Assembly (NCBI GenBank): GCA_964016885.1
Contig: OZ024743.1
Span: 313,782,001-313,846,000 of the forward strand
Source of the DNA: Eledone cirrhosa
Taxonomy: Eukaryota
DNA: 64,000 nt
Reading direction: 5' to 3'
Of this stretch, positions 1,948 to 58,860 are shown in pieces. The notes under the pieces were generated by a model. It did not search any database and was not told the DNA's origin. It saw only the letters and a program-made list of their open reading frames with translations. Numbering within the stretch: position 1 is the first letter of the stretch; the number at the start of each line of letters is the position of its first letter. The position numbers and the translations under genes were made by a program.

Positions 1948-2232
1948 GATTTCTTTATTAACCACAAGGGTTTACATAAAGTAGACATTAAGGACAGTGC
2001 AGGACAATACAGGACGGTACAAATGGGCATTTCTGCGTGTAAAAAATAAAAACAGAGGATGTAACAAAAAAATAACAATGAAAAATTCCCTAATAGGAGG
2101 GAGACTTCGGAGAGACATTTGTGGAGAAAACCCAGTAAAAGGCCATAGTAACCCTGACCACCAAGGCAATTGCCCTCTCCCAGTTTTCCACCTTTAATTT
2201 ACAGATACGTACTCAGAGTACGTATCTGTAAA

Positions 2233-5200
2233 TTAAAGGTGATTCACTCGGGCCATTCTTGCTTCTCTCACCCATCTTTCAACAAAATGCTGGGAAGAGA
2301 GCACTTCCCTCTCTACTCTGATTTTCCTTTTCAAATGAAATTTGAAAAAGTCAATCAGGGCATCACCGAAGAGGTAAGTGCTCGTCTTCAGCCCTTTCAA
2401 AAGTGTCCACCATACTATCTCTTTCGCCATGGCCACCAGACAGATAAAAACTGCCTGCCCTTCCCTGCTAAAGTAAGAGAGCGGGGCAATCCTCACGATG
2501 GACTCAGATGATAGCCGGATCCGTCCTACACGCGACAGCAGGTGTTCGACATAAACCCACAAGTCAGCAATTTTCGGACACTGGACGAGTGCGTGCAGGA
2601 CGGTTTCGTCGCCCTGCGCGCATCTCGGACATACCCGGCTGACGGCACCTCCATGCCTGTAGAGTTTATCCCGAACTGGCAAGGTTCCTCGGTAGCACTG
2701 CCAGGGCAGAGTTTTCTGGAAGTTGTCCATAGGTCCCGGCCCGAAAGTTCTTCCGAAGAGATTGGTTAGTTGATTTTCGTCGACGCCTAGAGTTACCCCA
2801 AGTACGTCGTCGCTCTTCCTCTCAACTAATACTCTATAGAACTCCGAGGTGGAGTTTCCACCGATCACATTGCCCGATTGGTCGAGGGCTGTGAGCGCCT
2901 GAAGACATTCCAGTCTCCAGGCGCTCCCTCTCGGTCTTCGCTTGACCCAGGACTGCAGCTCCGTCAAGGAAACGAGCTGGGGAAATACGTGTCTAGGAAA
3001 CGTTGACCACACCTGATCACCCTCGAGGAAGAGGTGGAGATGTCGTAGCCTAAGCGCTTGTCTCCGCATCATCAGCCACGGCATGCCCAGCCCTCCACGT
3101 AGCGCGTGTTGACAGCAGATGGACCGCCTGACTATCGGAGCGCGTCCCTTCCACAAAAGCGAAAGAGCAAACGCTCCAGCGCAGTCAGGCGGGGCTTAGG
3201 ACAAGGTACGACGGTCAGGCGGTAGCAGATGACAGACGCGATGTACGCGTTAGCCACCTCCGCTCGACCTTTCAGGGATAGCTCCTCTCGGCCCATTTCT
3301 GGGTGAGAGAAGCCACCCTGCTAGTCCCCTCGTCTCAGTTTTTGTCCGTCTGGAGGTCCGGACCGAACCAGACCCCTAGCAATTTAACCGGTCCGTCCGT
3401 CCAGCGTCCGACGACGCTGTTGGACGGCATGGACCTGCCTCTCCAGGTGCCGAGCTACAGTCCCGCTGACATTTCCTGGTTGATCATTGCTCCTGTCACC
3501 GCTTCGTATTCTCTTAGTGTAGTGCCGATCGCCTCAATCTGTTTGGCGTTCGACACCACTACGGTGACATCCTCCGCATATGCTGACACGGATCTTCCGC
3601 ATCCAAGTTCGCGCGGGACGCCCCTCAACGTCTCCAGTTTGTGCAGTAATGGCTCGAGAGTCAATACGTACAAGAGGGACGAGAGGGGACATCCTTGGCG
3701 GACCGAGCGCATGATGTTGAACGGTTCCGAAAGGTGACCGTTCACTCTCACCACAGAGCAGATGTCGCTGTGCATGGCAGCGATCCAGCCTCTGAAGACG
3801 GGCCCGTCGCCCTCAGGACTGCCGCTAGGTAACGATGGTCGACCCTATCGAAAGCTTTCGACTGATCTAAATTGATCAAGGACCCACCCGTGCCAGGTTT
3901 CCTAGCTACACTCTCTACGATGTATCGCATGAGGTGGAGGTTGTCGTGGATGGATATGTCGGGAATGGCGCATGTCTGCGCCTTTGCCACCAGACCTCCA
4001 ACGACAAGCGCCAAACTCTTTGCTAGCACCCTGGCCAAAATCTTGAACTCTGCGTTTAGCAGAGTTATGGGCCTAAACTTATCTATGTTATCCCCCTTGT
4101 TCGGATCCTTTCTCAGCAGCGCCACAGCTTCTCTGCTCACAGAGTTGGGAATTCTCCCGTTCTGTTGCCAGTTGCAGTAGACGTCCGCCAAGAGGCCTCC
4201 GAACAAGTCTGGCATCTGTACGTAAAGTTCATAGGGCAGACCATCCAAACCAGGCGATTTACCCCTTGTGCAGCCAGTCATTGCCTCCCATATTTCAGCG
4301 GATGTTATCGGCTTTTCGCAACACTCCGCCTCAGTGGCCGAGAGCCGCGGCAGTCCGTTGTGGTAGACACTAAAGTCCATCCCCCGACCCGGCCCACCGC
4401 TGCCCTCGAACAACTGAGCGAAGTGACGCTGAAAAGCTTCACACATTTGCCCGGGATCGAGTAGCATGCGCCCGTCGTGGTCCACCAAAGACCGGATCAT
4501 GGCTTTGTTGCCACGACGCGCCTCCGCCACTCGGGCCCATTGAACGGCTTTCGTCCCCTCGTGTCTGAGAGCACGCACCCTAGCTCTGAAAACGCAGCCT
4601 CCGTACTTTGCACTGAAGAATTGGTCAAGGGCCAATTTCGCCGCAAGCACGTCGGTCGCGATGCCTTTGCTAAGCGCCTCGTCTAATCTTCTAACTAGTT
4701 CTCCCTCTGCTCTATTTTTCTCTATTGCTAAAGCCTTACTAAACCTAATGGATTCTATTCTAATCGCTCTTTTCAGAGCAAACCACCACCTGTTGTTGAC
4801 GATGGACCCCGTCAACGCCCGCTTAACTAGTTCGCTAATCCGGTCTCTGTAGGCCTTGCGCGCTGGTAAGGACGCTTATAGCTTCCAGTAGCCGGGTCCT
4901 TGTCTATGAAGCCTATCTAAGTCAAGCACACAGATCACGAATTTGTGGTCCGTGTAGCTGACTATCTTGAATTGTGGACAGCCTTTGCTAGACCTATCTA
5001 TTTCCCTACAAAATACTCTATCTAGATATGATCTGCATGACCCTATGCGATTTGTCCAAGTCCACATTGGCACAGGGGAAATCCAATCGGTACCTGTCAG
5101 ACAGTTTAAAACGCCTGAGCAGGTTGGTGAGGCTCTTGCACCCTCCAGCCCTATCCGCTAATCCCACACAGTCCCAGCGTGCATCTAATATCCCGTTCCA

Positions 5201-5612
5201 GTCGCCCACTAACACTAAAAAGCGGGACGTTCCAAGAAAGGTCTCCATACGCCGGAATAAATCAGGTCTCCCTGCTCCTGTCGGCCACTAGCCTGAAAGC
5301 TTGCCCGTCTCCGCTGGTCACGTCCAGCACCACCAACTTACCCTCTGAGTCCAGGAAGATGGCCCGTATGGCGAGATCCAAACCTCTCCGAAAAAGCACA
5401 GCAACTCCTCCCCCCGATCCAGGAGGGCTGGGAGATGCGTACACATCGTAGCCGCCGAAGATCGGTGCGAAGGCCCGTGCTTCAGAGATTCTTGTCTCAC
5501 TGATGTCCACTACATCTATGTTTAGTGGCCTGAGGTCGTTGAGCAGGTGACCCTGCTTCCATGACGACCCCAAGCCACGCGCATTTATGCTGCCTATTCT
5601 GAGTGAGATCAT
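2233..5612 (-). pseudogene. Tx1 copy 1 ORF2 (APE-RT-CCHC), multiple frameshifts
   Basis: ORF fragments 5262-5612, 5018-5248, 4876-5073, 3748-4815, 3455-3775 and 2233-3156 are colinear with the 750-aa ORF of copy 2. Confidence 0.9.
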
Positions 5613-5647
5613 GTTTAAAATGGAGTGGAAAAGATGGGAAAGACCAC

Positions 5648-7570
5648 TTACCGTATTTGATCGTCTGATGAAGGGACCGTTGAATCGTCCCTTCGGCTGG
5701 TCGTCAGCTCTTCTATGAGTATGTCCGAATATACTCTCCGATTGAGAGTCCCTCCTAGGTCTCTGAAATCACCAACTGCGTTGGGGAATTTCGTTTTAAT
5801 GTTTGTGTATTGTTTCTGTGCTATTTTTACCAGTTTTATGTTCGTTGGCGTTTTTATTGGTGCTGGTATTATGTAGTCGTACTGTGAAATGTCTGTGTGT
5901 TCAATTATGTAAGTCATTAGTTTCTTGTTGTGTGTATTTATTGCCGTGCATTTGTTTTTCTGGAGGTGGGGTGTGGTTCTGCTATTTTCTTGTCGTTGTT
6001 ACTGGGTGTGTGTGTTTTGTTGTTGTGTTTGCGATGTTGGTGCTTGTGGTGGTGGTGTTGAAGGTGTTGTTGTTGGTGGTGGGGTTGTTGCCGGTGGTGA
6101 TGGTGGTGCTAGTGTGGGTGATGATGGTGTTGGTGGTGTTGCTGCTGTGAGTCTCTTTGCAGTAGCCTTTACCCTCTTTTCATTTCTTTCCTCCCTTTTC
6201 GAAGGCGACGATGCGCTGCTTCTGCGTGTGTGCCTTCTTCCGACCTTTTGCCATCCCTCTCCCACCTCACACTCCATGTCTGATTCTGTGAGGTCGGGGA
6301 GGGGTACCAGCTCCACTCTTTCACTTGTTGTTGTTGGTGATGTTTGCAGTGGAGTCTCTGTTGCAGCTGCATTTGGTATTACTGTTGTTGTTGTTAATAC
6401 TTTCACTGCTGCTGCTGTTCTTGATTTCCGTGGCGTGAGTATGGGTGCTACGGACCTATCGTTCCTGGTTGCCGCTTGTCCTGTTGCTGGTAGCAGTGGA
6501 GCCGGTTTCAGAAGGAGGGGGGTTTCTCCTTTCTCAGGGTCTTCTCGTTGCAGAAGGCCCTGAGGTGAGTCTTCGATCCACAGCGAAAGCATTTCGGGCG
6601 TTTGCCCTCAACACTTATGGGCAGTTGAGTGCCGTTATCGAAGTCTATCACATCCGGGATAGCTTCGATGCACTCCTGGTTGGTTTGGATTAACATCTCA
6701 ATGGAGGTGCCGACCCAATCTTCTCTTACTTTTTTCTGTACTTGCAGTACAGTTGTTTTGTCCTCGATTCCGACGAGGACAGACGCGGCCAGCCAAGAAG
6801 GGGCAATCACAATTTTTTGCCCGCAGTAGGAGGGCACCAACGCCATTTCCTCGCTCCTTAGGGTCACTAAGGATTGAGCCTTTGCCTCCTGGGGTGTGGC
6901 AAAAAGCACGTCTACGGTGGCATATTTCTTGCCTCGGGTGATATGCGTTTTCCGCTGCCACACAGACCCTAAGGCTTTTTGTATTTGAGCCTCTGTGGCT
7001 CTTTCAACCCTACGGGATTTTGTGCTTACTGTACGGTACGTGACCGTACAGTGCTGTTGGGTTTCGAATAATTTTTCGGCTGCCTTGCAGATTGCTCGGT
7101 ATCCGGTTTTCGTCACCATCTTCTTCGCTTCCTGTAATTCCTCATTTGTTATGAGGATGGTTTCCAGGTTCTTTGCGATACCTGCAAACGAGATTGGTTT
7201 TTCTTTGCTGCGTTGTTGTTGTTGTTGTCGTCAGAGCTGCTGTTACTTTTGTTGTTGCTGCAGGTACTACGACTACTGCCGCCGCCGCTGTTGCTGTGGT
7301 TGTTGTTGTTGTTGTTGTTGCTGCTGCTGCTGCTGCTGCTGTTGTTGCTGTTGCTGCTAAAACTGTTGTTGTTTATGCTGCTGCTGATGCTGTTTCGGCT
7401 GCTACTGTTGTTTTCCTTGTCACTGTTGCTGCTGGTGCTGTTATTACGGCTGCTACTGCTATTATTCATGACGTCAGACGAATTAAATGGGTTTTCGTAT
7501 TTACCGCACACCCTTTTCGTCATTGTCGTCGTCGTGGAGAAATGTTTCATGATTTTCACGTGATTTTTCT
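5648..7570 (-). pseudogene. Tx1 copy 1 ORF1 (RNA-binding region, Zn knuckle, Thr/Pro-rich linker), frameshifted; start approximate
   Basis: Fragments 6508-7119, 5999-6592 and 5648-5917 align by eye to copy 2 ORF1 (CTV.YRT..KSRRVERA.E.QIQKALG, VPSYCGQ, VEG.RP.C..CG..THLRAFC). Confidence 0.8.
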
Positions 7571-8904
7571 TGACTGGCGTCGCTTGCGAAAGAGAAGGGA
7601 GGGAGAGAGACACATTTAGAGAAGGGAGGGAGAGAGACAATCTTCTCTCTGCTGTAGTGTCGATTGAGGAAGAAGAAAACGGAATGAGTGGGAGTAACCT
7701 ATGAAAATTCTTTTTCGTGACCATGTTTTTTTTTTTTTTAAATAAATATTGGGCACAAAACCCCAATAAGCGGTTATTTAACCCCGAAGGGTCAAATAAC
7801 GGGCAGAAAGTCCCCTCTCACGAGGAGGAGGGTGTTTTTGTCTACAATTTGGTGAAAGTTTTAAACAATTTACAATTGTTATAGCGGTCAAAATTTACAA
7901 TACCTTACAGAGCCGAGCCTCATTCAACAATGGAATTTAATAATAATAATAATAATAATAATATTAATAATAATAGGGAAGAAAACGCACATGGTGGATA
8001 TATATCGTTATGGAATCGCTCCCGTACGTTTTTGATTTTTACTTATTTAAAACAACTGTGATAGAATAATTCTTATTACAAATGAAGTATAAGATTACAG
8101 TTTTTTTACACTCAGCAATCCACAACGCATCACTTTACGGCATAGGGCCCCAATATTTAATATTTAATTTTGGATCATAAGGTTATAGTCGAAAAAGAGA
8201 AAAGTGGCAAAATGGCTAAGTGGACAGACAGGCAAATAATTTCACCACAAACACCACCACCGCCACCATCACCACTACCACGCCAAAAACTCTAGTCAAG
8301 TTACCTCAACTTCTATTTCTAATTCAACTTCAACACCATCACTACAGTACTACGATCACATCACCACCACCACTGCCTCATTATCGCTACCGCCGCTATT
8401 TTCTCCCACTACCTCCTGCTAAGTACTACTAGCACAGCACCACCACTGCCTCATTATCGCTACCGGCGCTATTCTCTCCCACTACCTCCTGCTAAGACAG
8501 GCATCGTAGTACCCCAATAAAAGTGGAAGGCATCAAAAGATATAAATAGACTGATTTGATGACCCGGTCAAAAAATCAAAAAACCAAAAATCAACATCAA
8601 AACAGCACAGCAACAACGAAAAACGTAAAGAAAAGAAAAATGAAAAGAAAAACAGACAGACAGGGAAGGAAAAAAAAACAAAAAAAAAACTAAGTCATAC
8701 ATTCAAACATTACATTACAATGAAACTTATGCTTATTCATTTTTTGGTTTTGTTTACCTATTTATTTGTTTGTTTATTTATGTTCGTCTGCAGCGTGATA
8801 GTGCCACACTAAAATCACCGGGGGGTGATCAAATCACTGGGGGTGATGAAATCACCGGTGGTTATGTAACCATACATTCACCAAACCTCGATTATAGTAT
8901 TTAA

Positions 8905-12017: not shown

Positions 12018-12018
<1 letters not shown>
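8905..12018 (+). mobile_element. R4/Dong-like RLE retrotransposon, family B, near full length but with the RLE domain deleted
   Basis: N-terminal R..WT.E.N..VM.CY..GYRKRM..IW DNA-binding-like region; [43 protein letters not shown]; CRICGEREETIAHIVSEC knuckle near 11735-11795; ends in (TAA)n. 5'UTR boundary not defined. Confidence 0.9.
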
Positions 12019-12053
<35 letters not shown>

Positions 12054-12324
12054 AGTAATAATAATAATAATAATAATAATGTTTTCTTTATTAACCACAA
12101 GGGTTTACATAAAGTAGACATTAAGGACAGTACAGGACAATACAGGACGGTACAAATGGGCATTTCTGCGTGTAAAAAAAACGGAGGTTGAAATAAAATA
12201 ACAAAGAAAAATTCCCCAATAGGGGGGAGACTTCCGAGGGACATTTGTGGAGAAAGCCCATTAAAAGACATCAGTGGCCCTGACCACCAGGGCAAGTGCC
12301 CTCTCCCAGTTTTCCACCTTTAAT

Positions 12325-15300
12325 TTACAGACACATACTCAGAGAAGGCCCATTCTTTCGGGCCATACTTGCTTCTCTCACCCATCTTTCAACAAAATGC
12401 TGGGAAGAGAGCACTTCCCTCTCTACCCTGATTTTCCTTTTCAAATGAAATTTGAAAAAGTTAATCAGGGCATCACCGAAGAGGTAAGTGCTCGTCTTCA
12501 GCCCTTTCAAACGTGTCCACCATACTATCTCTTTCGCCATGGCCACCAAACAGATAAAAACTGCCTGCCCTTCCCGGCTAAAGGAAGAGGGCGGGGCAAT
12601 CCTCACGATGAACTCAGCTGATAGCTGGATCCGTCCTACACGTGACAGCAGATGTTCGACATAAACCCACAAGTCAGCAATGCTCGGACACTGGACGAGT
12701 GCGTGCAGGACGGATTCGTCGCCCTGCGCGCATCTCGGACATGCCCGGCTGACGGCACCTCCATGCCTGTAGAGTTTATCCCGAACTGGCAAAGCTCCTC
12801 GGTAGCACTGCCAGGCCAGGGATTTCTGGAAGTTGTCCATAGGCCCCGGCCAGAAAGTCCTTCCGAAGAGATTGGCTAGTTGATTTTCGCCGACGCCTAG
12901 AGTTTCTCCAAGTACGTCGTCGCTCTTCGCCTCCACTAATCACCTATAGAACGCCAAGGTGGAGTTTCCACCGATCACATTGCCCGATTGGTCGAGGGCT
13001 GTGAGCGCCTGAAGACATTCCAGTCTCCAAGCGCTCCCTCTCGGTCTTCGCTTGACCCAGGACTGCAGCTCCGTCAAGGAGACGAGCTGGGTAAAAACGC
13101 GTCTAGCAAACGGCGACCACACCTGATCACCGTCGAGGGAGAGGTGGAGATGTCGTAGCCTGAGCGCGTGTCTGCGCATCATCAGCCACGGCATGCCCAG
13201 CCCTCCACGTAGCGGGTGTTGACAGCAGATGGACCGCCTGACCATCGGAGCGCGTCCCTTCCACAAGAAGCGAAAGAGCAAACGCTCCAGTGCAGTAAGG
13301 CGGGGCTTAGGACAAGGTACGACGGTCAGGCGGTAGTAGATGACGAAGGCGATGTACGCATTCGCCACCTCCGCTCGACCTTTCAGGGATAGCTTCCTCT
13401 CGGCCCATTTCTGGGTGAGAGAAGCCACCCTGCTCGTCACCTCGTCCCAGTTTTTGTCCGTCTGGAGGTCTGGACCGAACCAGACTCCTAGCAATTTAAC
13501 CGGTCCGTCCAGCGCCCGACGACGCTGTTGGACGGCATGGACCTGCCTCTCCAGGTGCCGAGCTGCAGGCCCACTGACTTTTCCTGGTTGATCATTGCTC
13601 CTGTCACCGCTTCGTATTCTGTTAGTGTAGTGCCGATCGCCTCGATGTGTTTGGCGTTCGACACCACTACGGTGACATCGTCCGCATATGCTGACACGGA
13701 TCTTCCGCATTCTAGTTCGCGCGGGACCCCCCTCAACGTCTCCAGTTTGTACAGTAATGGCTCGAGATTCAATACGTACAATAGGGACGAGAGGGGACAT
13801 CCTTGGCGGACCGAGCGCATGATGTTGAACGGTTCCAAAAGGTGACCGTTCACTCTCACTACAGAGCAGATGTCGCTGTGCATGGCAGCGATCCAGCCTC
13901 TGAAGACGGGCCCAAAGCCAGCCGCCCTCAGGACTGCCGCTAGGTAACGATGGTCGTCCCTATCGAAGGCTTTCGACTGATCTAAATTGATCAAAGACCC
14001 ACCCGTGCCAGGTTCCCTAGCTACCCTCCCTACGATGTATCGCATGAGGTGGAGGTTGTCGTGGATGGATCTGTCGGGAATGGCGCATGTCTGTGCCTCT
14101 CCCACCAGACCACCAACGACAAGCGCCAACCTCTTTGCTAGCACCTTGGCCAAAATCTTGAACTCTGTGTTTAGCAGAGTTATGGGCCGACAATTTACTA
14201 TGTTATCCCCCTTGTTCGGATCCTTTCTCAGCAGCGCCACCGCTCCTCGGCTCACAGAGCTGGGAATTCTCCCGTTCTGTTGCCAGTTGCAGTAGACGTC
14301 CGCCAAGAGGCCTCCGAACAAGTTTGGCATTTGTACGTAAAGTTCATAGGGCAGACCATCCAAACCAGGCGATTTACCCCTTGTGCAACTAGTCATTGCA
14401 TCCCGTACTTCAGCGGTTGTTATCGGCTTTTCGCAACACTCCGCCTCAGTGGCCGAAAGCCGCGGCAGTCCGTCGAGGTAGACACTAAAGTCCATCTCCC
14501 GATCCGGCCCGCCACTGCCCTCGAACAACTGAGCGAAGTGACGCTGAAACGCTTCACACATTTGCCCGGCATCGAGTAGCATGCGCCCGTCGTGGTCCAC
14601 CAAAGACCGGATCGTGGCTTTGTTTCCATGACGCGCCTCCGCCACTCGGGCCCATTGAACGGCTTTCGTCCCCTCGTGTCTGAGAGCACGCACCCTAGCT
14701 CTGAAAACGCAGCCTTCGTGCTTTGCATTGAATAATTGGTCAAGGGCCAATTTCGCCGCAAGTACGTCGGTCGCGATGCCTTTGCTAAGCGCCTCATCTA
14801 ATTTTCTAACTAGTTCTCCCTCTGCTCTATTTTTCTCTATTGCTAAAGTCTTACTAAACCTAATGGACTCTATTCTAATTGCTCTTTTCAGAGCAAACCA
14901 CCACTTGTTGTTGACGATGGCCCCCGTCAACGCCCGCTTAACTAGTTCGCTAATCCGGCCTCTGTTGGCCTTGCGCGCTGGTAAGGACGCGTTTAGCTTC
15001 CAGTAGCCGGGTCCTCGCCTATGAAGCCTATCTAAGTCAAACACACAGATCACGAATTTGTGGTCCGTGTAGCTGACTATCTTGAATTGTTGACAGCCTA
15101 TGCTAGACCTATCTATTTCCCTACAAAATATTCTATCTAGATATGATCTGGATGACCCTATGCGATTTGTCCAAGTCCACATTGGTACATTCGGGAAATC
15201 CATTCGGTACCTGTCAGACAGTTCAAAACGTCTGAGCAGGTTGGTGAGACTCTTGCACCCTCCTTCCCTATCCACTAATCCCACACAATCCCAGCGTGCA

Positions 15301-15740
15301 TCTAAGATCCCGTTCCAGTCCCCCACTAACACTAAAGAGCGGGACGTTCCAAGAAAGGTTTCCAGACGCCGGAAGAAATCAGGCCGCCCTGCTCCTGTCG
15401 GGGCATAGACGGCCACTAACCTGAAAGCTTGCCCGTCTCCGCTGGTCACGTCCAGCACCACCAACTTACCTTCTGGGTTCAGAAAGATGGCCCGTATGGC
15501 AAGATCCAAACCTCTCCGAAAAAGCACAGCAACTCCTCCCCCCGATCCCGGACGGCTGGGAGATGCGTACACATCGTAGCCGCCGAAGATCGGTGCGAAA
15601 GCCTGTGCTTCGGAGATTCTGGTCTCGCTGATGGCCACTACATCTATGTTTAGTGACCTGAGGTCGATGAGCAGGTGGCCCTGCTTCCATGACGACCCCA
15701 AGCCACGCGCATTTATGCTGCCTATTCTGAGTGAGGTCAT
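12325..15740 (-). pseudogene. Tx1 copy 2 ORF2 (APE-RT-CCHC); frameshift near 13500 and stop near 12940
   Basis: ORFs 13488-15740, 12940-13800 and 12325-12936. Confidence 0.92.
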
Positions 15741-15774
15741 GTTGAAAAGGAGTGGAAAAGATGGGAAAGACCAC

Positions 15775-17622
15775 TTACCTTACTTCTCGTAGGGGAAGGA
15801 CGGTTTTTCCATCCTTTTCACTGCTTGTGGCCTCCTCAGGAAGGATGTCCTTATAAATCCTCCTGGAGAGTGCTTGTCGGAAGTCTCCGATGTCTTTGGG
15901 GAATTTTTTGTTTTAGTGTCATGTACGTTTTCTGTGTGATGCGAGTGATTTGTATGTGTGAAGGTGGTGTGAATTTTGGGGTTGTTGTGTAGTCTTTTTC
16001 TGTGATGCTGGTGTTGTGTTGGATGTAGTGTAATAATTGCTTGTTGTTCAAATTTAATGCTGTGTAGTGTGTATCGTTTTGGTTGTTTTGTTTTGTTTGC
16101 GTTTGTTGTGGGTTTGTTTCTGTTTCGCATTTTGGTGACTTTTGTGGTGTAGGTGATGGTGGTGTTGGGGTTAATGATGGTGATGGTGTTGGTGTTTGGG
16201 TTGATGGGATTGGCGATGCTGGTGTGGATGGTGGCATATCTGTCCTAACTTTTTTGTTTCTTAATTTATTTGCTTCCCTCTGTATTTTGTTTTTGGAGGG
16301 GGAAGGAAGAGAATTTTTTCTTTTTTGGTTTCTTTTTTATTTCCGGATATCGTTTCCCACTCCTCGTCGTCACAATCTGTCTCCAGTTGTGATAGGCCGG
16401 GGAGTGGAAAATCCTCCACAGCCGTTAGTTTTGGTTGTGGCGTGGTGGATGGTGTAGGCGCTGGTGCTAGTTCTGAAGCATTGGGTGGTGGTGGTGTTGG
16501 TTTTGCTGGTGGTGTTGGTTTTGCTACTGTTGCTGGGGTTGTTGCTGTTATAGTTGCTTCTGTTGTTGCTGCTACAGTTGTTGCTGCCATCTCTGCTACT
16601 GGTGGTGTTGATGGTTGTGTCACTGGGGTGGGTAGGAGAGGTGGCCTCAACCTTTTAGCCTGAGGGCAGAAAGCCCTTAGGTGGGTTCCTTCACCACAAA
16701 CGACACACCTAGGTCTTCTGCCCTCGACAATTACCGTGAGGTGGCTGCCGTCAGTGAGGTCTATTGCCTCTGGGATCTCCTCAATGCTTTTTTGGTCCGC
16801 TTGGATCAGGAGCTCCATCCCAGATCCGGACCAGTTCTCCTGCTTTTCTTTTGCTATTGCTATTATTTTTGTGTTGGCTTCGATGCCGGCGAGGACAGCC
16901 GCTATTAGCCAGGGAATTTCGATGGCCGGTGGAACGTGGGTCACCCTGATCTTTACGAGTCTCTGGCCACAATAGCTTGGGACGAGTGTGAAGTCGTCAC
17001 TTCTTAATGGGGCCATGGAGTGTTCTCTAGCCTCCTCTGGTGTTTCAAAGAACACGTCCACGATTCCATACTTTTGCCCACGTCTGATGTGGGTTTTTCT
17101 TGCCCACACATGTCCCAAAGCTTTTTGGATTTGGGACTCGGATGCCCGTTCCACTCGGCGCGATTTTACATTTATTGTTCTATACGACACGGTGCATAGG
17201 CGCCGATGCTCCATTTTATTAGGTGGGGGGGGGGACTGACCCTGTACCCATCTTTCTTTACCATTTGTTTGGCATTTTCTAAATCCTCCTGAGTTACCGT
17301 AAATGCTTCGAACTGTTTTGCTACTTTGGCGAAACTGAGGGGGGGGGGGGGTTATAATTTCATTGTTGTTGTTGTTGCTATCGTTAATATTAATTTTAGT
17401 TTCAGTTGTGGTGGTGGTGACGTCAGTCGTCTTTGGTGGGGAAGAGTCCATTTTGCTTGATTTCATTTCGACATCACGAGTTAATTTATTTTTTTCTTCT
17501 TTTGTTTCTGTTGTCGCGGTGGTGGTGGTGGTGGTGGTTGTCGCGGTGGTGGTGGTGGTGGTGGAGGCTTTAACACCTGCAGTCATTGGTAATGGCGGGA
17601 AATGAATGTCTGCCTGAGACAA
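15775..17622 (-). pseudogene. Tx1 copy 2 ORF1; two frameshifts in A-runs; true C-terminus ...KFPKDIGDFRQALSRRIYKDILPEE...LREVR*
   Basis: ORFs 16261-17622 and 15851-16237; manual translation of 15775-15905 aligns with the copy 1 end (KFPNAVGDFR..NRRVYSDIL.EE...QIR*). Confidence 0.85.
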
Positions 17623-18003
17623 ATTTAAAATATTGCTAGTGCTTATATTTTTTTTGTGTTGGCAAACGTAGTAACATTTACAATGGTGGTGTCGGTGTGA
17701 GGTGTTAATTTGTGAGGAAGGCTTTCAGCTGCTTCGTGCAGAGGTGAATTAGCCATTTTTTTCAAAGAAATTTTTTTGATAATAATAAAAGTTTAAATTT
17801 TGGGCACAAGGCCCCAATCTTTTTGGGTGTCCTTTTCGGAAAACAATGTATGTGCGCTTATAAACAGTTAACAATAAAACTTTCCATAAATGACAATTTT
17901 TAACAAACGGAAATAACAAACCTTTGCGGAGCTCACGATGATACGATTTACTACGTAGGTCGCCAATAATAATAATAATAATAATAATAATGATAATAAT
18001 AAT

Positions 18004-20558
18004 GCTTTCTTTATTAACCACAAGGGTTTACATAAAGCAGACATTAAGGACAGTACAGGACAATACAGGACGGTACAAATGGGCATTCCTGCGTGTAAAA
18101 AACCAAAAAACAGAGGATGTAATAATAGAACAATGAAAAAATTCCCCAATAGGGGGGAGACTTCTGTGGGACATTCGTGGAGAAAGCCCATTAAAAAGCC
18201 ACAGTGATCCTGACCACCAGGGCAAGTGCCCTCTCCCAGTTTTCCCACCTTTAATTTACAGACACATACTCAGAGTAGGCCCATTCACTCGGGCCATTCT
18301 TGCCTCTCTCACCCATCTTTCAACAAAATGCTGGGAAGAGAGCACTTCCCTCTCTACCCTGGTTTTCCCTTTCAAATGGAATTTGAAAAAGTTAATCAGG
18401 GCATCAGCGAAGAGGTAAGTGCTCGTCTTCAGCCCTTTCAAACGTGTCCACCATACTATCTCTTTCGCCATGGCCACCAGACAGATAAAAACTGCCTGCG
18501 CTTCCCGGCTAGAGGAAGAGGACGGGGCAATCCTCACGATGGACTCAGCTGATCCGTTCTAGACGCGACAGCAGATGTTCGACATAAATCCACAAGTCAG
18601 CAATGCTCGGACACTGGACGAGTGCGTGCAGTACGGTTTCGTCGCCCTACGCGCATCTCGGACATACCCGGCTGACGGCACTTCCATGCCTGTAGAGTTT
18701 ATCCCGAACTGGCAAAGCTCCTCGGTAGCACTGCCAGTCTGGGGATTTCTGGAAGTTGTCCATAGGCCCCGGCCCGAAAGTTCTTCCGAAGAGATTGGCT
18801 AGTTGATTTTCATCGAAGCCTAGAGTTTCCCCAAGTCAAAGACCGAATCGTGGTTTTATTACCAAGCTGCGCCTCTGCCACGCGGGCCCATCGAACAACT
18901 TTGGTTCCCTCGTTTCTCAGAGCATACGCCTTAGCTCTGACGATGCAACCTTCGTGTTTCGCATTGAAGAAATGGTCTAATGCCATTCTTGCCGCTAGCA
19001 CGTCAGCCTCGTCTAACTTATCTACCCCCCCCCTTCTCTTTTTCTCTAACGCTACTTCTTTGCTAAACTCTATTGACACTACTCTAATCTCTCTTTTGGT
19101 CTCGCTGACAGCAATTACATCCATCTATTGTTGGCGACTCCCCCTGTCAACATTTTCTTAACTAAATTGTTGATCTGGTCATTGTAAGCCTTACCTGCCG
19201 GAAATGACATGTTTAGCTTCCTAACCTACGCGTCTTATCTAGGTCGACTATACAGATCACAAACTTGTGATCTGAATAGGCGACTGTTTCAAAACGTGGA
19301 CAGCTTACACTATTTCTGTCTATTTTCCTAATGAATATCCTCTCTATATACGATCTAGATGACCCTGTCAGACAGTTGGAACTGGCTGATCAGGTTCCTG
19401 AGGCTTTTGCACCCCCTGCTCCTATCGGATACTCCCACACAGTCCCAGCGTGCGTCTAAGATGCCGTTCCAATCCCCCGCTAACAGTAAAGGGCGAGACG
19501 TGCCCAGAAAGGCTTCCAGGCGTCTAAAGAAGTCCGGCCGTCCTGCCCCAGTAGGAGCATAGACGGCTACCAGTCTAAAGGCACCACATTCGTTATTGTT
19601 CACGTCCAGGACCACCAACTTCCCGTCCGGGTCCCGGAAGATCGACCTTACCTCGAGATCCAGGCCTTTCCTAAACAGCACTGCCACCCTGCCTCGCATT
19701 CCCGGCCGGCTAACAGATGCAAAGATCTGATAGTCGTCGAAAATGGGGGCTAGTGCGTGTCGGAAATCCTGGTGTTGCTGACGGCAATTACATCCATTTC
19801 TAGAGACCTGAGGTCATTGAGCAGGTGACCCTGCTTCCAGGACAATCCCAGGCCTCGAACATTTAAACATCCTACTCTTAATACGGCCATGTTGGAGGGT
19901 GAAAAAGAGAGAGAGGAAAGGTTTACTTACCTTCCGGGCTCTTGTGAAGGTCGGGTTGTTCGACCTCCATAGTTAGTGGGGTTTCTTTTGGGAACCCCTT
20001 TAAAAGTCTTGAAGTGGGTTTTACGTTCGGGATTCCCACGTCACGAGGAAAGCTGTCTCGTATTTCTTTGTATAAATCGAGCGACATTTGCACCAGAACC
20101 AAATCTTCCGGCACGCGAAATGTGCTCGATTTAAACATTTCCCCCTCTTTTTGTATATTTTCACTTCGTGTTACGAGGCCAATCAGTTCCTTGTTGGCTC
20201 TCCTGACGACCACGAAGTTTTGTATGTTTTGTTGGTGCGATTTTATTTGTTTGCGTGGCTGTGGTGGTGATGGATTTGTGGGTGTTGTGTCGGTTGTGTC
20301 TGTGTTTGTTGTGAGTGCGGTGTCTGTGGTTTCAGATGTTTGAGTGTATATTTGTTCTTGCGTCTGTTTAGGTTGTTTGCGTTTGGGGGATTCTGGTGAA
20401 GGTGATGGTGGTGTTGATGTGTGTGTTATTGGAGAGATGATTGCGTGGGTGGTGTCTGCGTTTTTTATTGTAGGTGCTTTTGAGCTTTGTTGAGTTTTCT
20501 TTTTCTTTTTGTGTTTCCTTTTTGTATTTTGGGGGATTTGGGTTTTCCCTCATCTTCA
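18004..20558 (-). mobile_element. L1/Tx1 copy 3: chimeric, RT-deleted, 5'-truncated
   Basis: 18004-18836 is near-identical to the 3' ends of copies 1 and 2. It then jumps to a diverged APE region (MAVLRVGCLNVRGLG, AFRLVAVYAPTGAGR, GDWNGILDA) and a third ORF1 C-terminus. Confidence 0.85.
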
Positions 20559-24542: not shown

Positions 24543-27500
24543 TAGTTAAAAATTGAACAGGAACAAAACAGAGGCAGTACGCACAAAGGTTTGTTAGTTT
24601 CACGCTCTTGAGAGTGGGATGGTGGTGGGGACCGACGTTTCGGGCATAAGCCCTTCTTCAGGTGAAAAGTGTGTGGGAAGAGAGTTCCAAGGGTGTGTTG
24701 GGGAGTGGTGGAGAGACATATAGAAAAAAAGGGGGTGAGAGGAAACGGTACAAATGAAATTAAATATAAAAGCATAATAAAAATAAAAATAAAAATGAAG
24801 TAAAACAGGAGGTGGAAGCGTGTGAGGCTGGTAAGGGTGGTGGTGGGTGGAGTGGGGAGAGGGACGGCGGGGTGTCCGAGCGGGGAGGGCTGAAGGTGGT
24901 GTGTGTGTGTAGGTGTACGTGTGTGTGTATGTGAAAGTAAGAGTTGGGGGAAGAATGGGGTTGCATGTTCAGGAGGAGGTGTGTGTGGGGTGGGGTGTAG
25001 GTCGGAGTGTGTGTGCGTGTGGCGATGGGGAGGGGTCAGAGGGGTGGGGAGAGAGGATTCCGGAGGCTGAGTGTGTAAATATGTGGTGGTACGCACGTGT
25101 GTGTGTGGTGTTTATGCGTGTTGTGAATGTAGGTGGCGTGTGGGAAACATTTTTTTTTAGTGTATGTCAGTGGGTGAGTCCATAAGGTAGTTCCATAGAG
25201 GATGTGGTGGAATGCTGGAATCCTTGGGATGTGGTGGATTCTAGGGATCGATGTTCAATATGTGTAATCCGTGGTTGGTCGGAAGAGGGGAGATGTGAGG
25301 TGCGCGCGCAACAGGAAGTGGTCAGAGTGTCAAGGCAGGAGGAGGGTTGTGTGTCTGTGTGCGCGGGGAGGTGGTCAGAGAAGGGCATAGCAGCAGTCGG
25401 GTAGAATGGTAAGTGAAGAAAGTCGGTGTGTCTATTTGTGCGGAGGTGCGGTGGACAGGGGAGAGGATGGGTAGGTGTGAAAGTTGGAGTGAGGAGGGTG
25501 TGTGTGTGTGTATTAGTAGAGGTGTTAGTGGGATGTGTGTGTGTGTGAGAAAGGGTGTCGGCGGAGCGGGGAGAGAACGGTGTGGGGGCCGGTGGAGGGA
25601 ATGTAGTGTACTGGTGTGTGTGTGCGTGTTTGGATGAGTGCGTGTATGGTGAGGTTGGGAAAGGGTAGAATGCGGGTGTGAGTGGGGGTCAGTGGTGGTA
25701 GGGTGTGTAGAGTGGGTGGTGTAAGTGGGTGTGTGTGTTCGTGTGCGTGGGGTCGGGGGTGTTAGTGATGTTAGTTGCGGGGTGGTGGGGTGGATGTGTG
25801 GGGGTGAGGGTTAGTGGTGGTAATAGGGTGTGTGTTTAGTGTGAGCGCGTGTATATATATGTACCAGTGGGTGTGTGCGTGTGATAAGGAGAGGAGGAGA
25901 AGAAGGGAGGGATGTTAGTATGTTAGTTGGGGTAGGGTTGGCGGGTGTGAATGGAGGTGTTAGTATTGTTAGTTGTGGGTTGGGCGGTGAAAAGGAGGGG
26001 TGTGTTAGTGGTGTTAGTGGGGGATATGTGTGGGGGGAGGGGGCGGTCGAAGGCTAAATGAATAAGGGTGGGGATTTCAGGCCCGGGGGGGGGTCTATAG
26101 GGTGAAGATAGTTCGTTGTTCGACCCTGAGGAGAGTGGCGGGTGTTCCGTGGCATTGGAGTAGGCCACAGACTGTGAGGTGGTGTGCGGAATGTCCAGGG
26201 GCACCTAAGTGGCGGGCGATGGGGGAACTACCACCGAGACGAATATCTCGGAGGTGTTCGGTAAACCGGTCCGTCAGGCGACGTCAAGTCTGTCCGACGT
26301 AATTTGCGCTGCACTCCGTGCAACGAAGTCCGTAGACTAGGTTGCAGGAGGTGCAGCGGAAGGCATGCCGGACAGAGAGAGAGTGGCAGTTGGGACCCTG
26401 GAAGGTGGTGGTGTTGGTGATGTGGGGACAGGTGTTGCAGCGGGGCCTGGAAAAGGGAAGGGAACCGGGGGAGAAAGAGAGCGTGGGTTAGGGGGTAGGG
26501 AGCTGTGTGCTGGAGGGTGCGGAGAATGCGTGCGCGTTTGAAGGAGGGGAGTGATGGGGCTGGGAAGATGTGGGAGGTGGAGGGTCGCACTGGAGGCGTT
26601 GGAAGAGGCGGAGGATGGTGCGGTGGAGGGGTATGGTGGAGGGTGTTAGGTGATGGGGAAGGGGAGACGGTGGGTGGGTGTGCGGTGGGGTTGGGTGAAG
26701 GTGGTGGAGCGGTGGACTGCACGGGCGCGGGTGAGAGCGGTGTGGACGAGAGCGGGGGAGTAACTTCTGCGGATGAAATGGCTGACTAGCGAAAGGGCCT
26801 GGGACTCAAAGTCAGCATCTCGGCAACAGAGGCGGCGGATCCTGAGGAGTTGGTAGTAGAGAATAGAGTGTTTAGTGTGTGTAGGGTGGGAAGAGGTGAA
26901 GTCGAGGTAGGAGTGGGAGTCGGTGGGTTTGAAGAAGGCGGAGGTGACGAGGGAGTGGTGGGAGGGACCGAAGGCGACGAAAATGTCTAAGAAGTGGACG
27001 TGGGTGGTGGAGATAGAGGTGGTGAAGTGGAGGGAGGGGTGGAAGGAGCAGAAGAAGGAGAGAAGGAGTCGAGCTGTTCTCGGGTGAGGGTCGTGGCTCC
27101 GATACAGTCGTCGATGTAACGACCGTACAATTCGGGCGTGGGGCCGGTGTACTGGGCAAAGATTCGGGCCTCAACATGGCCAACAAAAAGGTTGGCATAG
27201 TTTGGGCCCATTCTTGTACCCATGGCTTCCCCCGTGGCCTGTTGGTAAAACTCACCCGAGAAGGAGAAACAGTTGAGGGTGAGGACAAGCTCGGCGAAGC
27301 GAAGGAGGGTGGGGGTGGAGGGGATGGGGAAGAGGCGAAGGTCGAGGTAGTGCTTGAGGGCACGTAGGCCGTCGGCGTGGGGATGACGGTATAGAGGGAC
27401 TTGATATCTAGGGTGAAGAGGAAGGGCTGTAGGCCGGGAAGGTATGTGAAGGAGTCGAAAAGGCGCAGGGCGTGGTTGGTGTCGGAGATGTGGGAGGGGA

Positions 27501-28870
27501 GGGTGGTGACAAGGGGGGCGTGGATGGAGTCAAGAAAGGCGGAGATGAGTTCGGTTGGGCAGTTGCAAGCGGAGACGATGGAGCGGCCGGGGTTGTCGGG
27601 TTCGTGGAGTTTGGGGAGGAAGTAGATGGTGAGGGTGCGGGGGGTGCGGACGACGAGATGGGAAGCGGTGGGGGAAGAGGGAGGAGGAGACAAGGTGTTG
27701 GATGGTGGAGGAAACTTGTTGTTGGTAGAGGGGTGTGGGATCGGAGGGTAGAGGGCGTTAGAAGAGGGGGTTACGGACTGCCTGAGGGCTTCGGCCGTGT
27801 AGAGGTCCACGCGCCACACCACCTCGGCGCCTCCCTTGTCCGCCGGTTTGATGACGATGTCATCTCGGCTACGGAGGGAGCTGAGAGCGAGGAGTTCGCC
27901 CCGTGAGATGTTATTCCGTTTGGAACGGTGGCGGAAGTCGAAACGATTTACGGCGCTACGGCTGGCATCGACGAACGCGTCCAGGGTGCTAAATTGCCCT
28001 GGGGCCGGCGTCCAAGAAGATGGTCGTCGGCCTAGGGCAAGAAACTGGTCTGGGGCGTTCGGAGCCGGTGGCGTTTGACCGAAATGTTGCTGTAGCTTTG
28101 TCCGTCGCACGAATCGCTCGACTTCCGTTCGGGTGCGGAACTCGTCGCTGTGCGGAGTGTGGGATATGAAGCGAAGGCCTCTACTAAGGAGTGAGCGCTC
28201 AGGTGCGGAGAGGGGGAGGTCAGGGGGTATGGTGACAACAAGTGGTGGGGTTTGGGTGTGTGAGGGAGGAAGGGAGGATGTGGTGGGGTGAGGTTGAGAG
28301 TGGAGATTGGGTAGGGTGTGAGTAGAGGGAGGGGTGGATAGTGGTGGGGACGGATGGGAGGGGGAGGTGGGGGACTCATAGGGAAGGGCGGGTGATGGTG
28401 GATGGGGGTGGTTGGGAGGAGTGAGTGTAGCTTACGGGCTTTGGTGGAGGTGAGGAAGGAGAAGAGGTCGTGGTTGAGGTTTTTGATGAAGATGAGGATG
28501 GCGTGGGCGAGGAGGAGGTTGCAGGTGGAGTTAAGGCGGAGGAGGGTGGGGGTCAGTTGGTAGTCAAGTTTGCGGATGGTGGAGCGGGAGGCGCGGATGG
28601 AGTTGCGCATTAGGAGGCGCGAGGATCGGGTGAGGATACGTTAGGTGGAGGGGAAGCTGAGGGAGATAAGGTGGATGTGGAGGCAGTGGCTGAGGAAATG
28701 GATGTGGCTGGATTGCCGGGTTTTGGCGAAGAGAAGGTAGGAGAGTTGAAGGGCCTAGGGGAGATAGCAGAGTGGGATGAGGGGGTGAGGTAAAGTTTGA
28801 GGCTAGTGTGGAGTTGGTGGAGAAAGGATCTCAGGCTGGGTATGGTTGGCGTTGAGTGAAAGCAGGGGGA
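24543..28870 (-). mobile_element. Neptune-like Penelope element, decayed, with long C/A-rich 3'UTR; boundaries approximate
   Basis: IKPADKGG, PGR.IVSACNCPTELISAFLD, FTLDIKSLYT, MGTRMGPNYANLFVG, RYIDD; GIY-YIG LVYGLRCTECSANYVGQT.RRLTDRFTEH near 26250-26345; HHR near the 3' end. Confidence 0.88.
24631..24665 (-). ncRNA. Minimal type I hammerhead of the Neptune-like 3' end
   Basis: Minus strand: cac-CTGAAGA-a-gggc ttat gccc-GAAA-cg-TC-ggt. Confidence 0.8.
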
Positions 28871-37791: not shown

Positions 37792-37910
<119 letters not shown>

Positions 37911-38068
37911 GAGGAGGTTATAGTTCACTTGAAGCATTGTGTAATGAGGTATAAACGTTAGAATATGTGTAATAAGGCTAAGACAATGCAGGTATGGACA
38001 TAGAAAAAAGAATGCAATAGTGAAAGATATTGATGTGAATTCGTCTTTCACCTTGAATTTATTTAAAT

Positions 38069-38108
38069 GTCCTTAATTTTCGAGATAATATCTCTTCTTC
38101 GGAGGGAA
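38069..38108 (-). ncRNA. Putative minimal hammerhead in pLTR (identical copy at 41226-41265)
   Basis: Minus strand: cct-CCGAAGA-a-gagat att atctc-GAAA-at-TA-agg; only 3 bp of stem I. Confidence 0.6.
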
Positions 38109-38511
38109 GTAAAGGTCTCAAACCAGCATCTTTAAATCTCTAATCAAGCCATGCTGACCGGAAATAGTATAGAGTATCTGTTCTAACTTTAATATAAAAG
38201 AATTAAAATTAGGTGGAAAAAGAGTAGTCTCCCCTTAAGAGGGGTTTGTTTATGTTTTGTTTTTGTTTTTGTTTTGTTTTTTTAAATTTTATATGCGTGC
38301 CTGTATATGTGTGTGGGAGAATGCATGAAGGTGTAGGTATGTGGGTGTGTGGGTGTGAGTGTGGAAAGATAGGTATAATCGTAAAAGTGGGGGGTAGGTG
38401 TTGTCTGGTGTTAGAACTGGTATTGTGTGTGTATGTGTGAGAGAGAATAAGTGGAGGTGTGCGCGTGCGTGTGTGTGTGTGGGGTGTGTAAAAATGGGGC
38501 TAGAGGCCCTA

Positions 38512-41094: not shown

Positions 41095-41323
41095 TGTGTA
41101 ATGAGGTATAAACGTTAGAATATGTGTAATAAGGCCAAGACAATGCAGGTATGGACATAGAAAAAAGAATGCAATAGTGAAAGATATTGATGTGAATTCG
41201 TCTTTCACCTTGAATTTATTTAAATGTCCTTAATTTTCGAGATAATATCTCTTCTTCGGAGGGAAGTAAAGGTCTCAAACCAGCGTCTTTAAATCTCTAA
41301 TCAAGCCATGCTGACCGGAAATA

Positions 41324-41400
<77 letters not shown>

Positions 41401-56315: not shown

Positions 56316-58860
56316 GTTATAGTGTTAAGGATACGGAGAGAAATAAAAATAAAAATAAATAAAGAGAGGTAGAAAGAGATATAGGTGGTGGGAGAAAAAG
56401 AGGTAGATCGAGTAATATCTATTATACGAGGTGGGAGAGATAGGGGAGGGGTGAGATACAGGAGGTAGAGTTAAAACAGCCGATACATAAGTCCCGTCAA
56501 GTGTAGAGGGAGGAGGAGAAGAGATATATTCAGAAATAAAGATGATAGCTTTAAAATATTATGTTTCATCAGTCTATCAATTCTTATGAATTATAATGTA
56601 AATATCAATATTCATGAATGAGACACATATCAATAATGTGTGAAAAAATAATGACTATATGTTTAGTTTAAAAATTCTTAGGTTTATAATCAAAATCTGA
56701 GATAAAATTTAAAAAAAATACTGAAATACATAAGTATATATGTATTTTCATGAAAAAAGTAAAAGAAAAAAGAGAAAGAAAAAGAGAAGATTATCTCAAA
56801 TTCAAGTTGACATTATAGACACACATGTGAGTTTAGGTGATCAGCTCTGTAAATTTTTATTTCACATGAAAATCTTCATTGCGTTACAAAAGATTCTACC
56901 ATACATATATGTACATACATATATATATACATAAAATATACATTATTAATAATAATATTCTTGCCCTCTCTTACATGATTATCGTTCAAGCATAGAATAG
57001 AACAGATATCAATATATTAAACACGCCAAGAATATTTCATTCCCCAGAATATCTAGGGCCGTAAGAAAACACAGTGTGCCCCGCATATCAATCACAGAAA
57101 TCAACTCTTCCAATTTATTTGACAATATATTGCCAAGTTCATTAGAAGCAATCAGAATCAAAAGCAAACAAAACCAAAATTATTCAACAAAACTTATTTA
57201 GCAGAAATCATTAAAAAAAAACCTTAGGATACCCGGTTGTTCTACAGATGCTCTTATATTTATTATAGAAGTTTATCTAGCTTAAAAATTTTATTCAATA
57301 GATTGGGAGCATCACCATTTTAAGGTAGTTTAATTACATCATTAATTATATACTCATGAAGAAGGTTTAAAAAATTGAAGGAATCGAAAGATTTATCGCC
57401 AAGTTTCATAAATAATTAAAAATCTTAAGTAAATATACTACATTTTAAATTTATATTTATATTTAAAAGTTGAGTTCAATCTATGTCTGCAGCAACTGAA
57501 TAAATTGGTCCGTAAATTAAGGGAATTTTTAGATTTTAGTATAAAGAATATCTCCTCCGCGCAGAGGTCACATGTCTCAGAAGAGGAATTAAAAGGAATC
57601 CCTCTTGAGACTATATTCCAAACCATCGAATATCCAACGTTATCATGTTTAAGTTGCCAGAGTAAGCCTGATAGTGATGTTGAAGATTTTTTGTTTGGAT
57701 CCGTGAAAGAATTCTTGTGATTATTATAGCGAAGTTTAAATTCTGTCGAGGTGGAACCAACATAATTAAAAGAATTTAAGTCAGTTTTAACATTACAGTT
57801 GTATATTATATTTTTAACTAAGCAATTGTTATTTAACGGGCATTTAGATCTATCTCTACAGTTACAGTTGTTTACTTGAATATTGTTTAGGCTATTATCG
57901 GTATTTTGGCTAGGTTTTAGATTCCTATTATTTATTCTATTAATATTTTGTGCTAAATTTTTGGTGGACAAGTAGGTTAATTTTATAGTATGTCTATTGA
58001 AAATTGAGTGATACTTATGTGTTCTAGGGAAGCGTTTGTCAAGAGCATTAAAAAATAGTTTAGCGATGTGGGTTTTAATTATATTTCTAGTTCTATTTCT
58101 TTTCTGGTTTTTGGAATTATTGTAATTCTTTCTATTATAGTTGTTAAAGTTGTTACCGTAATTAAAATTGTTGTTATTTTGGTTAGTTTGTCTATTATTA
58201 TCGATGTACATAATTTTATCACTATATCCTGCTCTAGCTAACGCTTCATTGTAATACTGGGCTTTTTGGTCGAAAATATTTTTATTAGATGAGATTCTAG
58301 AGATACGTTTTTGAACAGAGTTCACTATAATATTTTTAACAGATCTGGGGTGGTTGGAGTTAAAGTTGACATAATTCAAGTTTTCATTTAACTTGTGAAA
58401 TGGATAGTGAAGACATGTGTTGAGATTTAATGTTACATCTAGGAAATTGACTATTCTATGGTTATTCTCAATTTCTATTTTTAGATTAAGGTAATTAAAA
58501 AATTGTATAATTTGTTTTCTTTTTCTATTTAGTTCAGAGTTATTATTTTCAATAAGTAAAAGCATGTCATCTCGATATAATCCTCCGGTAACACCGGGTA
58601 TTTTCCTATGCAGCGAATTAATTATAAATAGGCCCACAAGGTCTGTTACCTGAGCTGAGTCAGATGATCCCATAGTAATGTCGAAATTGTTATCTCTATC
58701 TGCCCTAGTCCATAGTTGGTTATTAAATTCTATCAACGTTTTCCTTGCCGATAGTATAGCCGATAGTATAATGTGCATTTCATTGCTAGTTAGGTCTGTA
58801 TGTTTGAATGCGTAATTTATATCAGTTATAAAATATTTACTCGTTGTAACCCAACAATTT
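55880..58860 (-). mobile_element. 5'-truncated YRDD-type PLE with terminal hammerhead at 55923-55988
   Basis: ORF 57438-58778 (FDITMGSSDSAQVTDLVG, GLYRDD, CNCRDRSKCPL, YVGSTSTEFKLRYNNH, CDLC); minus strand tattttgt-CTGAAGA-gggcata..tatccct-GAAA-tatata-TA-atgaaata. Confidence 0.9.

Follow-up and report, generated by a model that had tools for sequence, protein, structure and literature searches.

A donor-like GGTAAGT kept at the ORF1 stop of an L1-Tx1-type LINE of Eledone cirrhosa, and a candidate 3′ UTR acceptor that may permit excision of ORF2

A donor-like GGTAAGT at the ORF1 stop of a two-ORF LINE of Eledone cirrhosa is, as judged by sequence comparison, a real conserved feature, and the surrounding sequence appears to fit excision of the whole of ORF2 better than the fusion of ORF1 to ORF2 through a very short intron that the initial annotation had put forward. 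We tentatively regard splicing of this donor to an acceptor in the 3′ UTR, which would give an ORF1-only mRNA, as a serious possibility. The window, that is, the whole stretch of 64,000 nt that was analysed, is rich in TA microsatellites, and its first 21 kb hold three minus-strand copies of the element. ORF2 encodes an AP-like endonuclease, a reverse transcriptase and a zf-RVT domain (Pfam PF03372, PF00078, and PF13966), and in structure comparison the endonuclease matches L1 endonuclease structures with E values of 3e-5 to 1e-4. Direct reading of the ORF1 of copies 1 and 2 gives a CCHC zinc knuckle (C-x2-C-x4-H-x4-C), a motif that has no Pfam match. The element, for which the Tx1 label (L1-Tx1 type) is our presumed assignment, is a new member of a known and abundant group, the L1-Tx1 clade of non-LTR retrotransposons; the nearest named protein to the ORF2-encoding element is from Argonauta hians (55% identity). 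L1-Tx1, Dong-R4, and Penelope elements are all described as prominent in octopus genomes in passages of PMC13282606 and PMC8967140, and the supplement of the former gives 80 L1-Tx1 families for O. vulgaris. The copies and their reading frames are as follows.

1948..7935, minus strand: copy 1, a lineage-A ORF2 with a different ORF1.
12081..17964, minus strand: copy 2, a near full-length L1-Tx1-type LINE of lineage A, with (AAT)n at both ends.
16264..17724, minus strand: main open stretch of copy 2 ORF1, with the CCHC zinc knuckle.
12325..15740, minus strand: copy 2 ORF2 (AP-like endonuclease, RT, zf-RVT), broken at 13488 and 12940.
18837..20555, minus strand: 5′ part of copy 3, lineage B.
18004..18836, minus strand: 3′ part of copy 3, a lineage-A tail.

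Both ORFs of copy 2 are disrupted by frameshifts or stops. Identity between copies 1 and 2 is 92.9% over the whole stretch that begins some 7 nt upstream of the donor and runs through the spacer, ORF2, and the 3′ UTR to the tail, and the two therefore supply a single observation of the spacer. At the ends of their ORF1s identity is only about 56%, and the two ORF1s align only in short stretches at 67-70%. This pattern indicates that ORF1 and 5′ UTR modules were swapped onto a common ORF2, with the break at the donor; the switch in identity from about 56% to 93% falls at 5658 in copy 1 and at 15785 in copy 2, about 7 nt above the donor in each. The ORF2 of copy 3 (lineage B) is 67% identical to that of lineage A, and by these comparisons the independent lineages carrying the donor are two, not three, with copy 3 as the sole independent second lineage. 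Copy 3 is itself a chimera of a lineage-B 5′ part and a lineage-A tail, joined at 18836/18837 with 6 nt of microhomology; about 1.7 kb of ORF2 is absent, the joint is not a splice junction, and contig records X5-23 and X6-30 terminate there.

The sites around the junction between the two ORFs are the following.

15773..15779, minus strand: donor-like G-GTAAGT of copy 2, phase 2, containing the ORF1 stop TAA (15777-15775).
15741..15772, minus strand: inter-ORF spacer of copy 2, pyrimidine-rich, ending in AAC before the ORF2 ATG.
15464..15470, minus strand: second perfect GGTAAGT of copy 2, inside ORF2 (Glu-Gly-Lys codons), used as an internal control.
5652-5646, minus strand: donor of copy 1 (GT from 5651), with the ORF1 stop at 5650-5648 and the ORF2 ATG at 5612.
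19931-19925, minus strand: donor of copy 3 (GT from 19930), phase 1, with the ORF1 stop at 19925-19923 and the ATG at 19890.

The initial annotation had placed GGTAAGT at the ORF1 stop of all three copies, AAC ahead of each ORF2 ATG, and the stop TAA inside a phase-2 donor in copies 1 and 2. On recheck the GT starts at 5651, 15778, and 19930, the ATGs at 5612, 15740, and 19890 each follow AAC, the two stops lie inside their donors, and the coordinates and phases given for donors, ATGs, and AGs are all correct. The motif is thus present in every copy, although the kinship of copies 1 and 2 reduces its conservation from three cases to two lineages. A form of the spacer one base longer makes up 5% of the depth of run X1 at 15748.

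Every GT, CAG, and TAG of each element was ranked by simple scores of our own that count pyrimidines and matches to U1. Of the 307, 295, and 137 GT sites in copies 1, 2, and 3, the donor at the end of ORF1 comes out on top, tied in copies 1 and 2 with the GGTAAGT inside ORF2 (15469 in copy 2), and dinucleotide shuffles of the 58-60 nt junction equal its match in 54, 21, and 5 of 5000 cases, respectively. A 6-kb element that contains a GGTAAGT is nothing unusual (0.33-0.37 expected, 2 seen); it is the position of the motif, not its presence, that is non-random. All seven of its bases are kept between the lineages, against 47-53% likeness in the middle of the spacer, and the second GGTAAGT, which lies 310 nt into ORF2 in lineage A, is not kept in the lineage-B ORF2 of copy 3. 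A relative available as protein only (P0136, 46% identical) has Gly-Glu at the donor position, compatible with a phase-1 G-GTGAG variant of the donor 35 nt before the AUG. In P0136 an ORF1-like C-terminus, Gly-Glu-Gln, nine pyrimidine-rich codons, Met, and ORF2 follow one another in a single frame; such a frame, open from the ORF1 end across the spacer into ORF2 (P0136/P0153), may come from a dead copy that has lost its stop or from a protein that is naturally fused.

That the motif has no part in splicing, and that GGTAAGT, the pyrimidine tract, and AACATG together make a stop/restart context or a transcription or RNA-structure signal, strikes us as rather doubtful. In lineage A the TAAG is the ORF1 stop itself, but the stop of lineage B is not a TAA inside the motif, and there all seven bases are retained beside a spacer that has drifted. 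An equally perfect GGTAAGT does arise from coding inside ORF2, yet that one is not kept in lineage B, and the Gly-Glu of P0136 is compatible with a related signal at the ORF1 end. The donor of copy 3 pairs with a CUUUCC motif in a predicted hairpin, but none of the spacer or terminal-exon folds beats its shuffles (z from -0.43 to 0.40). Rfam and tRNA scans of the window gave no matches, and the motif accordingly does not belong to an snRNA target. In favour of a role outside splicing, human L1 retains a conserved donor for the sake of a RUNX3 site and rarely splices it, according to passages of PMC5860796.

The fusion proposed earlier would use the same donor with acceptors at the start of ORF2.

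15738..15740, minus strand: ORF2 start codon of copy 2, at the position canonical for L1/Tx1, with 10 residues up to endonuclease Asn10.
15727..15729, minus strand: proximal CAG of copy 2, in ORF2 codons 4-5, rank 8 of 185 CAG/TAG sites.
5599, minus strand: end of the proximal CAG of copy 1.
19877, 19875, and 19872, minus strand: ends of AAG, GAG, and TAG in copy 3.

We consider it improbable that an intron of 52-59 nt joins ORF1 to ORF2 in frame in the manner of the inter-ORF intron of Ogre LTR elements, even though several of its elements are in place. The first downstream AG in copies 1 and 2 is, as had been claimed, the CAG ending at 5599 and 15727, giving introns of 53 and 52 nt in phase 2; in copy 3 an AAG does come first (54 nt, phase 2) and a TAG lies at 59 nt in phase 1, and a GAG at 56 nt in phase 1 had been overlooked. 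The 5′ splice site is of consensus type, and in both lineages, despite their differing phases, a join to the first CAG or TAG would keep the frame of ORF1, an outcome of about 1 in 9 by chance. The proximal CAG holds its eighth rank in copy 2, though in copy 1 it is outside the top 8 of 216, and the last Val/Ile of ORF1 would stand in for the hydrophobic Leu4 in copies 1 and 2. Ogre elements splice their inter-ORF intron in part of their transcripts, as described in sections of PMC6317226, while the available text of PMC6431247 holds nothing on the Ogre intron. A human intron of 56 nt is known to splice (excerpts of PMC8363638), a threshold near 65 nt is given for short human introns (excerpts of PMC4463651), and our literature search found no value for the minimum intron length of cephalopods.

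The protein encoded at the start of ORF2 speaks against this short intron. It would delete an AUG whose AAC context is kept in both lineages, and with it a Met that 49 of 67 homologues have at a distance of 8-10 residues from Asn10, the 67 being those among 150 matches listed whose best stretch starts at or before query residue 6 (the other 83 were excluded); such a Met marks a start codon though not always an ATG, as gene callers write Met for ATG, GTG, and TTG alike. Among the 18 closest homologues by motif, 17 have the Met near the Asn10 position, P0136 being counted by eye. Asn10 aligns with Asn14 of L1 in structure comparison, and strand 1 of the endonuclease comprises residues 3-10 in the structure model (pLDDT ~95). 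All 67 homologues are hydrophobic at position 6, to which a join at the TAG of copy 3, with loss of residues 1-6, would bring Glu; the weak GAG join (56 nt) would retain Val6. Position 5 is Arg in only 8 of the 18 closest relatives, and the remaining 10 therefore cannot carry a phase-2 AG there.

The architecture of the putative intron is also unfavourable. A branch site normally lies about 18-40 nt before the AG, with the pyrimidine tract beside the AG. In copies 1 and 2 the tract occupies the 5′ half, and the only branch-like sequence (CTCAC) is 5 nt from the AG. The first AG of copy 3 is out of frame, and the phase differs between the lineages; AGs recur at the same two places in both because of the Arg and Ile/Val-Gly codons, so that either donor phase finds a partner. 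Under cis-preference the RNA that makes ORF2p would be the fused one, and copies without the intron should build up; parts of PMC5860796 report that L1 proteins copy the mRNA that encoded them and that genomic copies arise from spliced L1 RNAs, and contig records X5-17 and X4-14 cross the spacers unspliced. Of the splicing proposal, then, the conserved donor-like signal is upheld, and the fusion intron of 52-59 nt is disfavoured by the AUG, strand 1, the tract, and the phase. Very probably the 38-40 nt between the ORFs are an ordinary inter-ORF spacer, with ORF2 translated from its own AUG on an unspliced bicistronic RNA, most likely by termination-reinitiation if human L1 is a guide, where ORF2 is reached by reinitiation across a 63-nt spacer (passages of PMC5972666).

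An intron fusing the two ORFs was expected to keep its phase across subfamilies; the donor is in phase 2 in lineage A and in phase 1 in lineage B. Copy 2 ORF1 is frameshifted in the window, and at 15904 46% of the X1 depth differs by one base, which agrees with the phase-2 frame. The phase 1 of copy 3 looks genuine by alignment: read in this frame, the C-terminal region of its ORF1 aligns with that of copies 1 and 2 and with that of P0136, the match to the latter reaching to within about 60 nt of the donor; contig records span the region gap-free (X6 record 32, 19925-20075; X4 record 16, 19945-20152). X5 record 17, from another organism, has a copy-1-like ORF1 end joined at 15818 to the last 40 nt of copy-2 ORF1; in the copy-1 frame a stop would directly precede the donor, unless the one unplaced gap of the record intervenes.

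The two alternatives offered alongside the fusion, a donor spliced elsewhere and a U1-binding site, fit the sequence better than the fusion does, and for the former a candidate partner was found in the 3′ UTR.

12166..12230, minus strand: candidate distal acceptor of copy 2 in the 3′ UTR, U-rich, free of AG over 63 nt and ending in CAG at 12166, rank 1 of 185.
12081..12165, minus strand: putative 85-nt terminal exon of copy 2, with 19 codons and TAA (12107-12105), AATAAA at 12092, and a (TTA)n tail.
2033, minus strand: end of the distal acceptor of copy 1, rank 1 of 216.
18089, minus strand: end of the distal acceptor of copy 3, rank 1 of 85.

The 3′ UTR CAG ranks first among the 216, 185, and 85 CAG/TAG sites of copies 1, 2, and 3, is preceded by 55-70 AG-free bases, and lies 85 nt from the tail. 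Because all three 3′ ends are of lineage A (the 3′ end of lineage B itself is outside the window), the acceptor counts as one observation. Shuffles of the 3′ UTR reach its score together with the AG-free length in 20, 143, and 14 of 2000 cases, and its score alone in 104, 633, and 105 of 2000; with 35-39% U in the 3′ UTR, a U tract followed by CAG may well arise by chance. Between copies, identity is 93% over the final 15 bases of the putative intron and 95-98% over the terminal exon, against 50-84% with indels in the upstream tract, although conservation of the last 100 nt could instead stem from recognition by the reverse transcriptase. In the part of the terminal exon encoding the new tail, 2 of 3 substitutions are silent in the phase-2 frame, a weak sign.

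The donor and the distal acceptor bracket ORF2: between them lie 3619 and 3613 nt, made up of the spacer, the complete ORF2, and some of the 3′ UTR. In silico, and in lineage A only, the long join from the phase-2 donor extends ORF1 by 19 codons and then stops at a TAA 12 nt before AATAAA; the phase-1 donor joined to the lineage-A terminal exon meets no stop. In the proposed mechanism U1 would recognise GGTAAGT as a real donor, the strong 3′ UTR acceptor being its likeliest partner, and splicing would remove ORF2 whole as a 3.6-kb intron, leaving an ORF1-only mRNA that uses the poly(A) signal of the element itself. In lineage A the spliced ORF1 would gain 19 codons and a stop in the last exon. 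Splicing would presumably raise the output of ORF1p, and the full-length RNA would be the only source of ORF2p, which would copy that RNA in cis, so that the intron would never be lost. Excision of ORF2 would explain the donor at the stop, the drift in phase, and the retention of the intron, as it needs no fixed phase and relies on copying in cis. High-ranking acceptors also occur near the ORF1 start (rank 2 in copy 2 and rank 3 in copy 1), and copy 2 has a weak donor close to its 5′ end; together these sites, at 17921, 17610-17614, and 7652, possibly delimit a 5′ UTR intron.

It is unlikely that U1 binds the motif without productive splicing, whether to keep the full-length RNA from being polyadenylated too early, within the A-rich ORF1, or to aid its stability or export. 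Such binding requires neither phase nor acceptor, and U1 has a dual role of this kind in the Ty1/copia element EVD, where a conserved donor yields a Gag-only spliced RNA and U1 also protects the full-length RNA (passages of PMC5580714). Each of the three ORF1s has an AATAAA 207-563 nt before the donor, and in copies 1 and 2 no other follows over the next 3.7 kb until the terminal signal is reached. However, ORF1 is 40-48% A near its end, where AATAAA is expected by chance, the signals lie upstream of the donor here and the suppressed sites downstream of it in EVD, and the top-ranked 3′ UTR acceptor would be left unexplained.

Production of an ORF1-only mRNA by splicing would resemble EVD, in the described parts of PMC5580714, in having a conserved U1-like donor where the structural gene ends, together with a splice-made stop, an excess of structural protein, and an unspliced full-length RNA, the last three of them proposed here. 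EVD differs in being an LTR element, and its short intron is linked to premature termination, whereas in the present element the intron would be the whole of ORF2 and the normal 3′ end would be used. A conserved donor at the end of the structural ORF was found in both lineages (2 of 2), and a splice-made stop ahead of the poly(A) signal in silico in lineage A only; this non-LTR element may work in an EVD-like way but is no member of the Ty1/copia family. Ogre, as covered in sections of PMC6317226, parallels the fusion in having an inter-ORF intron that is spliced in a subset of transcripts and fuses the ORFs, but it is an LTR element, its intron averages ~274 bp against 52-59 nt here, and ORF2 here has its own conserved AUG. 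Human L1 shares the short spacer, the separate ORF2 AUG, a conserved and seldom-used donor, and ORF1-only derivatives (HAL1) in the accounts excerpted from PMC5972666, PMC5753468, and PMC5860796; its donor differs in lying in the 5′ UTR, and splicing from it (SpIREs) is a dead end (PMC5860796). The same source, in the part available, describes an ORF1p excess that arises without splicing and splicing that harms L1, which counts against the ORF1-only splice. Members of the coleoid L1-Tx1 clade are alike in two ORFs, a CCHC knuckle in ORF1, an AP-like endonuclease with RT and zf-RVT, and a simple-repeat tail; the combination of an ORF1-stop donor and a 3′ UTR acceptor would set the present element apart, as no report of it was found in the open-access literature searched, and the O. 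vulgaris supplement of PMC13282606 contains no GGTAAG text.

Spliced or intron-less genomic forms were sought in contig records of four runs aligned to 15300-20300 (37,073, 2,445, 9, and 181 records). Intron-less copies, which had been suggested earlier as a sign of the fusion, did not appear: the short join is absent among the 15 of 539 joints listed, and the long join (18088 to 15779) is absent among these and among 12 of 158 rows of a second table. The lack of a spliced form among the listed joints also suits a motif with no splicing role. The listed joints have depths of about 20 to 76, against a summed depth of 297,414 at 15748 in X1, and a 35-nt skip near the spacer was detected in the same data. 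As contigs show presence, not absence, with rare forms dropped and depth giving no copy number, the joint data exclude only an abundant intron-less subfamily; likewise, no abundant trans-mobilised ORF1-only copy is seen among the joints listed. In searches for relatives elsewhere, viral scans gave 0 of 59 and two pattern matches with no convincing relative; a metagenome match (L001, 1 locus in 182 stretches) is a bacterial false match and a genome-scan match is a distant bacterial endonuclease. No ORF1 homologue occurs among 259 and 7919 candidates, a result that bears only weakly on fused forms.

The usual account of the large excess of ORF1p over ORF2p in LINEs is that reinitiation on a single bicistronic RNA is weak, and LINEs are seen as harmed by splicing. 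A donor kept at the ORF1 stop across lineages 67% alike, with ORF2 perhaps excised, would, if true, represent a copia-type solution in a LINE and a route to ORF1-only (HAL1-like) derivatives. In LTR elements, protein made from spliced RNA need not act on that same RNA. It is most improbable that one donor here serves two acceptors, the distal one for ORF1-only mRNA and the proximal one for the ORF1-ORF2 fusion; if it did, this would be a LINE with a retrovirus-like splicing programme whose unspliced RNA is copied in trans, against the cis-preference of the L1 type. Should both joins prove absent, the spacer would be an ordinary one, and its conserved motif would be left unexplained.

Copy 1 and copy 2 are each flanked by (AAT)n at either end, in these two cases only, and the tail itself is (TTA)n; the tracts around the Tx1 copies lie at 1881-1947, 7938-7975, 12018-12080, and 17965-18003. 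The copies adjoin plus-strand LINEs whose C-terminus matches R2 proteins, a match on which an RTE assignment was rejected and which we take to be Dong/R4-like, a group that targets TAA repeats; the Tx1 copies and these LINEs possibly have a common microsatellite target, used in opposite orientation. About 143 tandem AATAAA copies with 96% matches occupy 62197-63050. Open frames of 519 and 473 aa at 26872-28431 and 57438-58859 (minus strand) have no Pfam match, the first of them sitting in a strongly G-skewed region. A Penelope-like element with RT and GIY-YIG (905 aa, frame intact) at 37910-41328 lies between 262-nt direct repeats that are 99% alike, and was therefore recently inserted.
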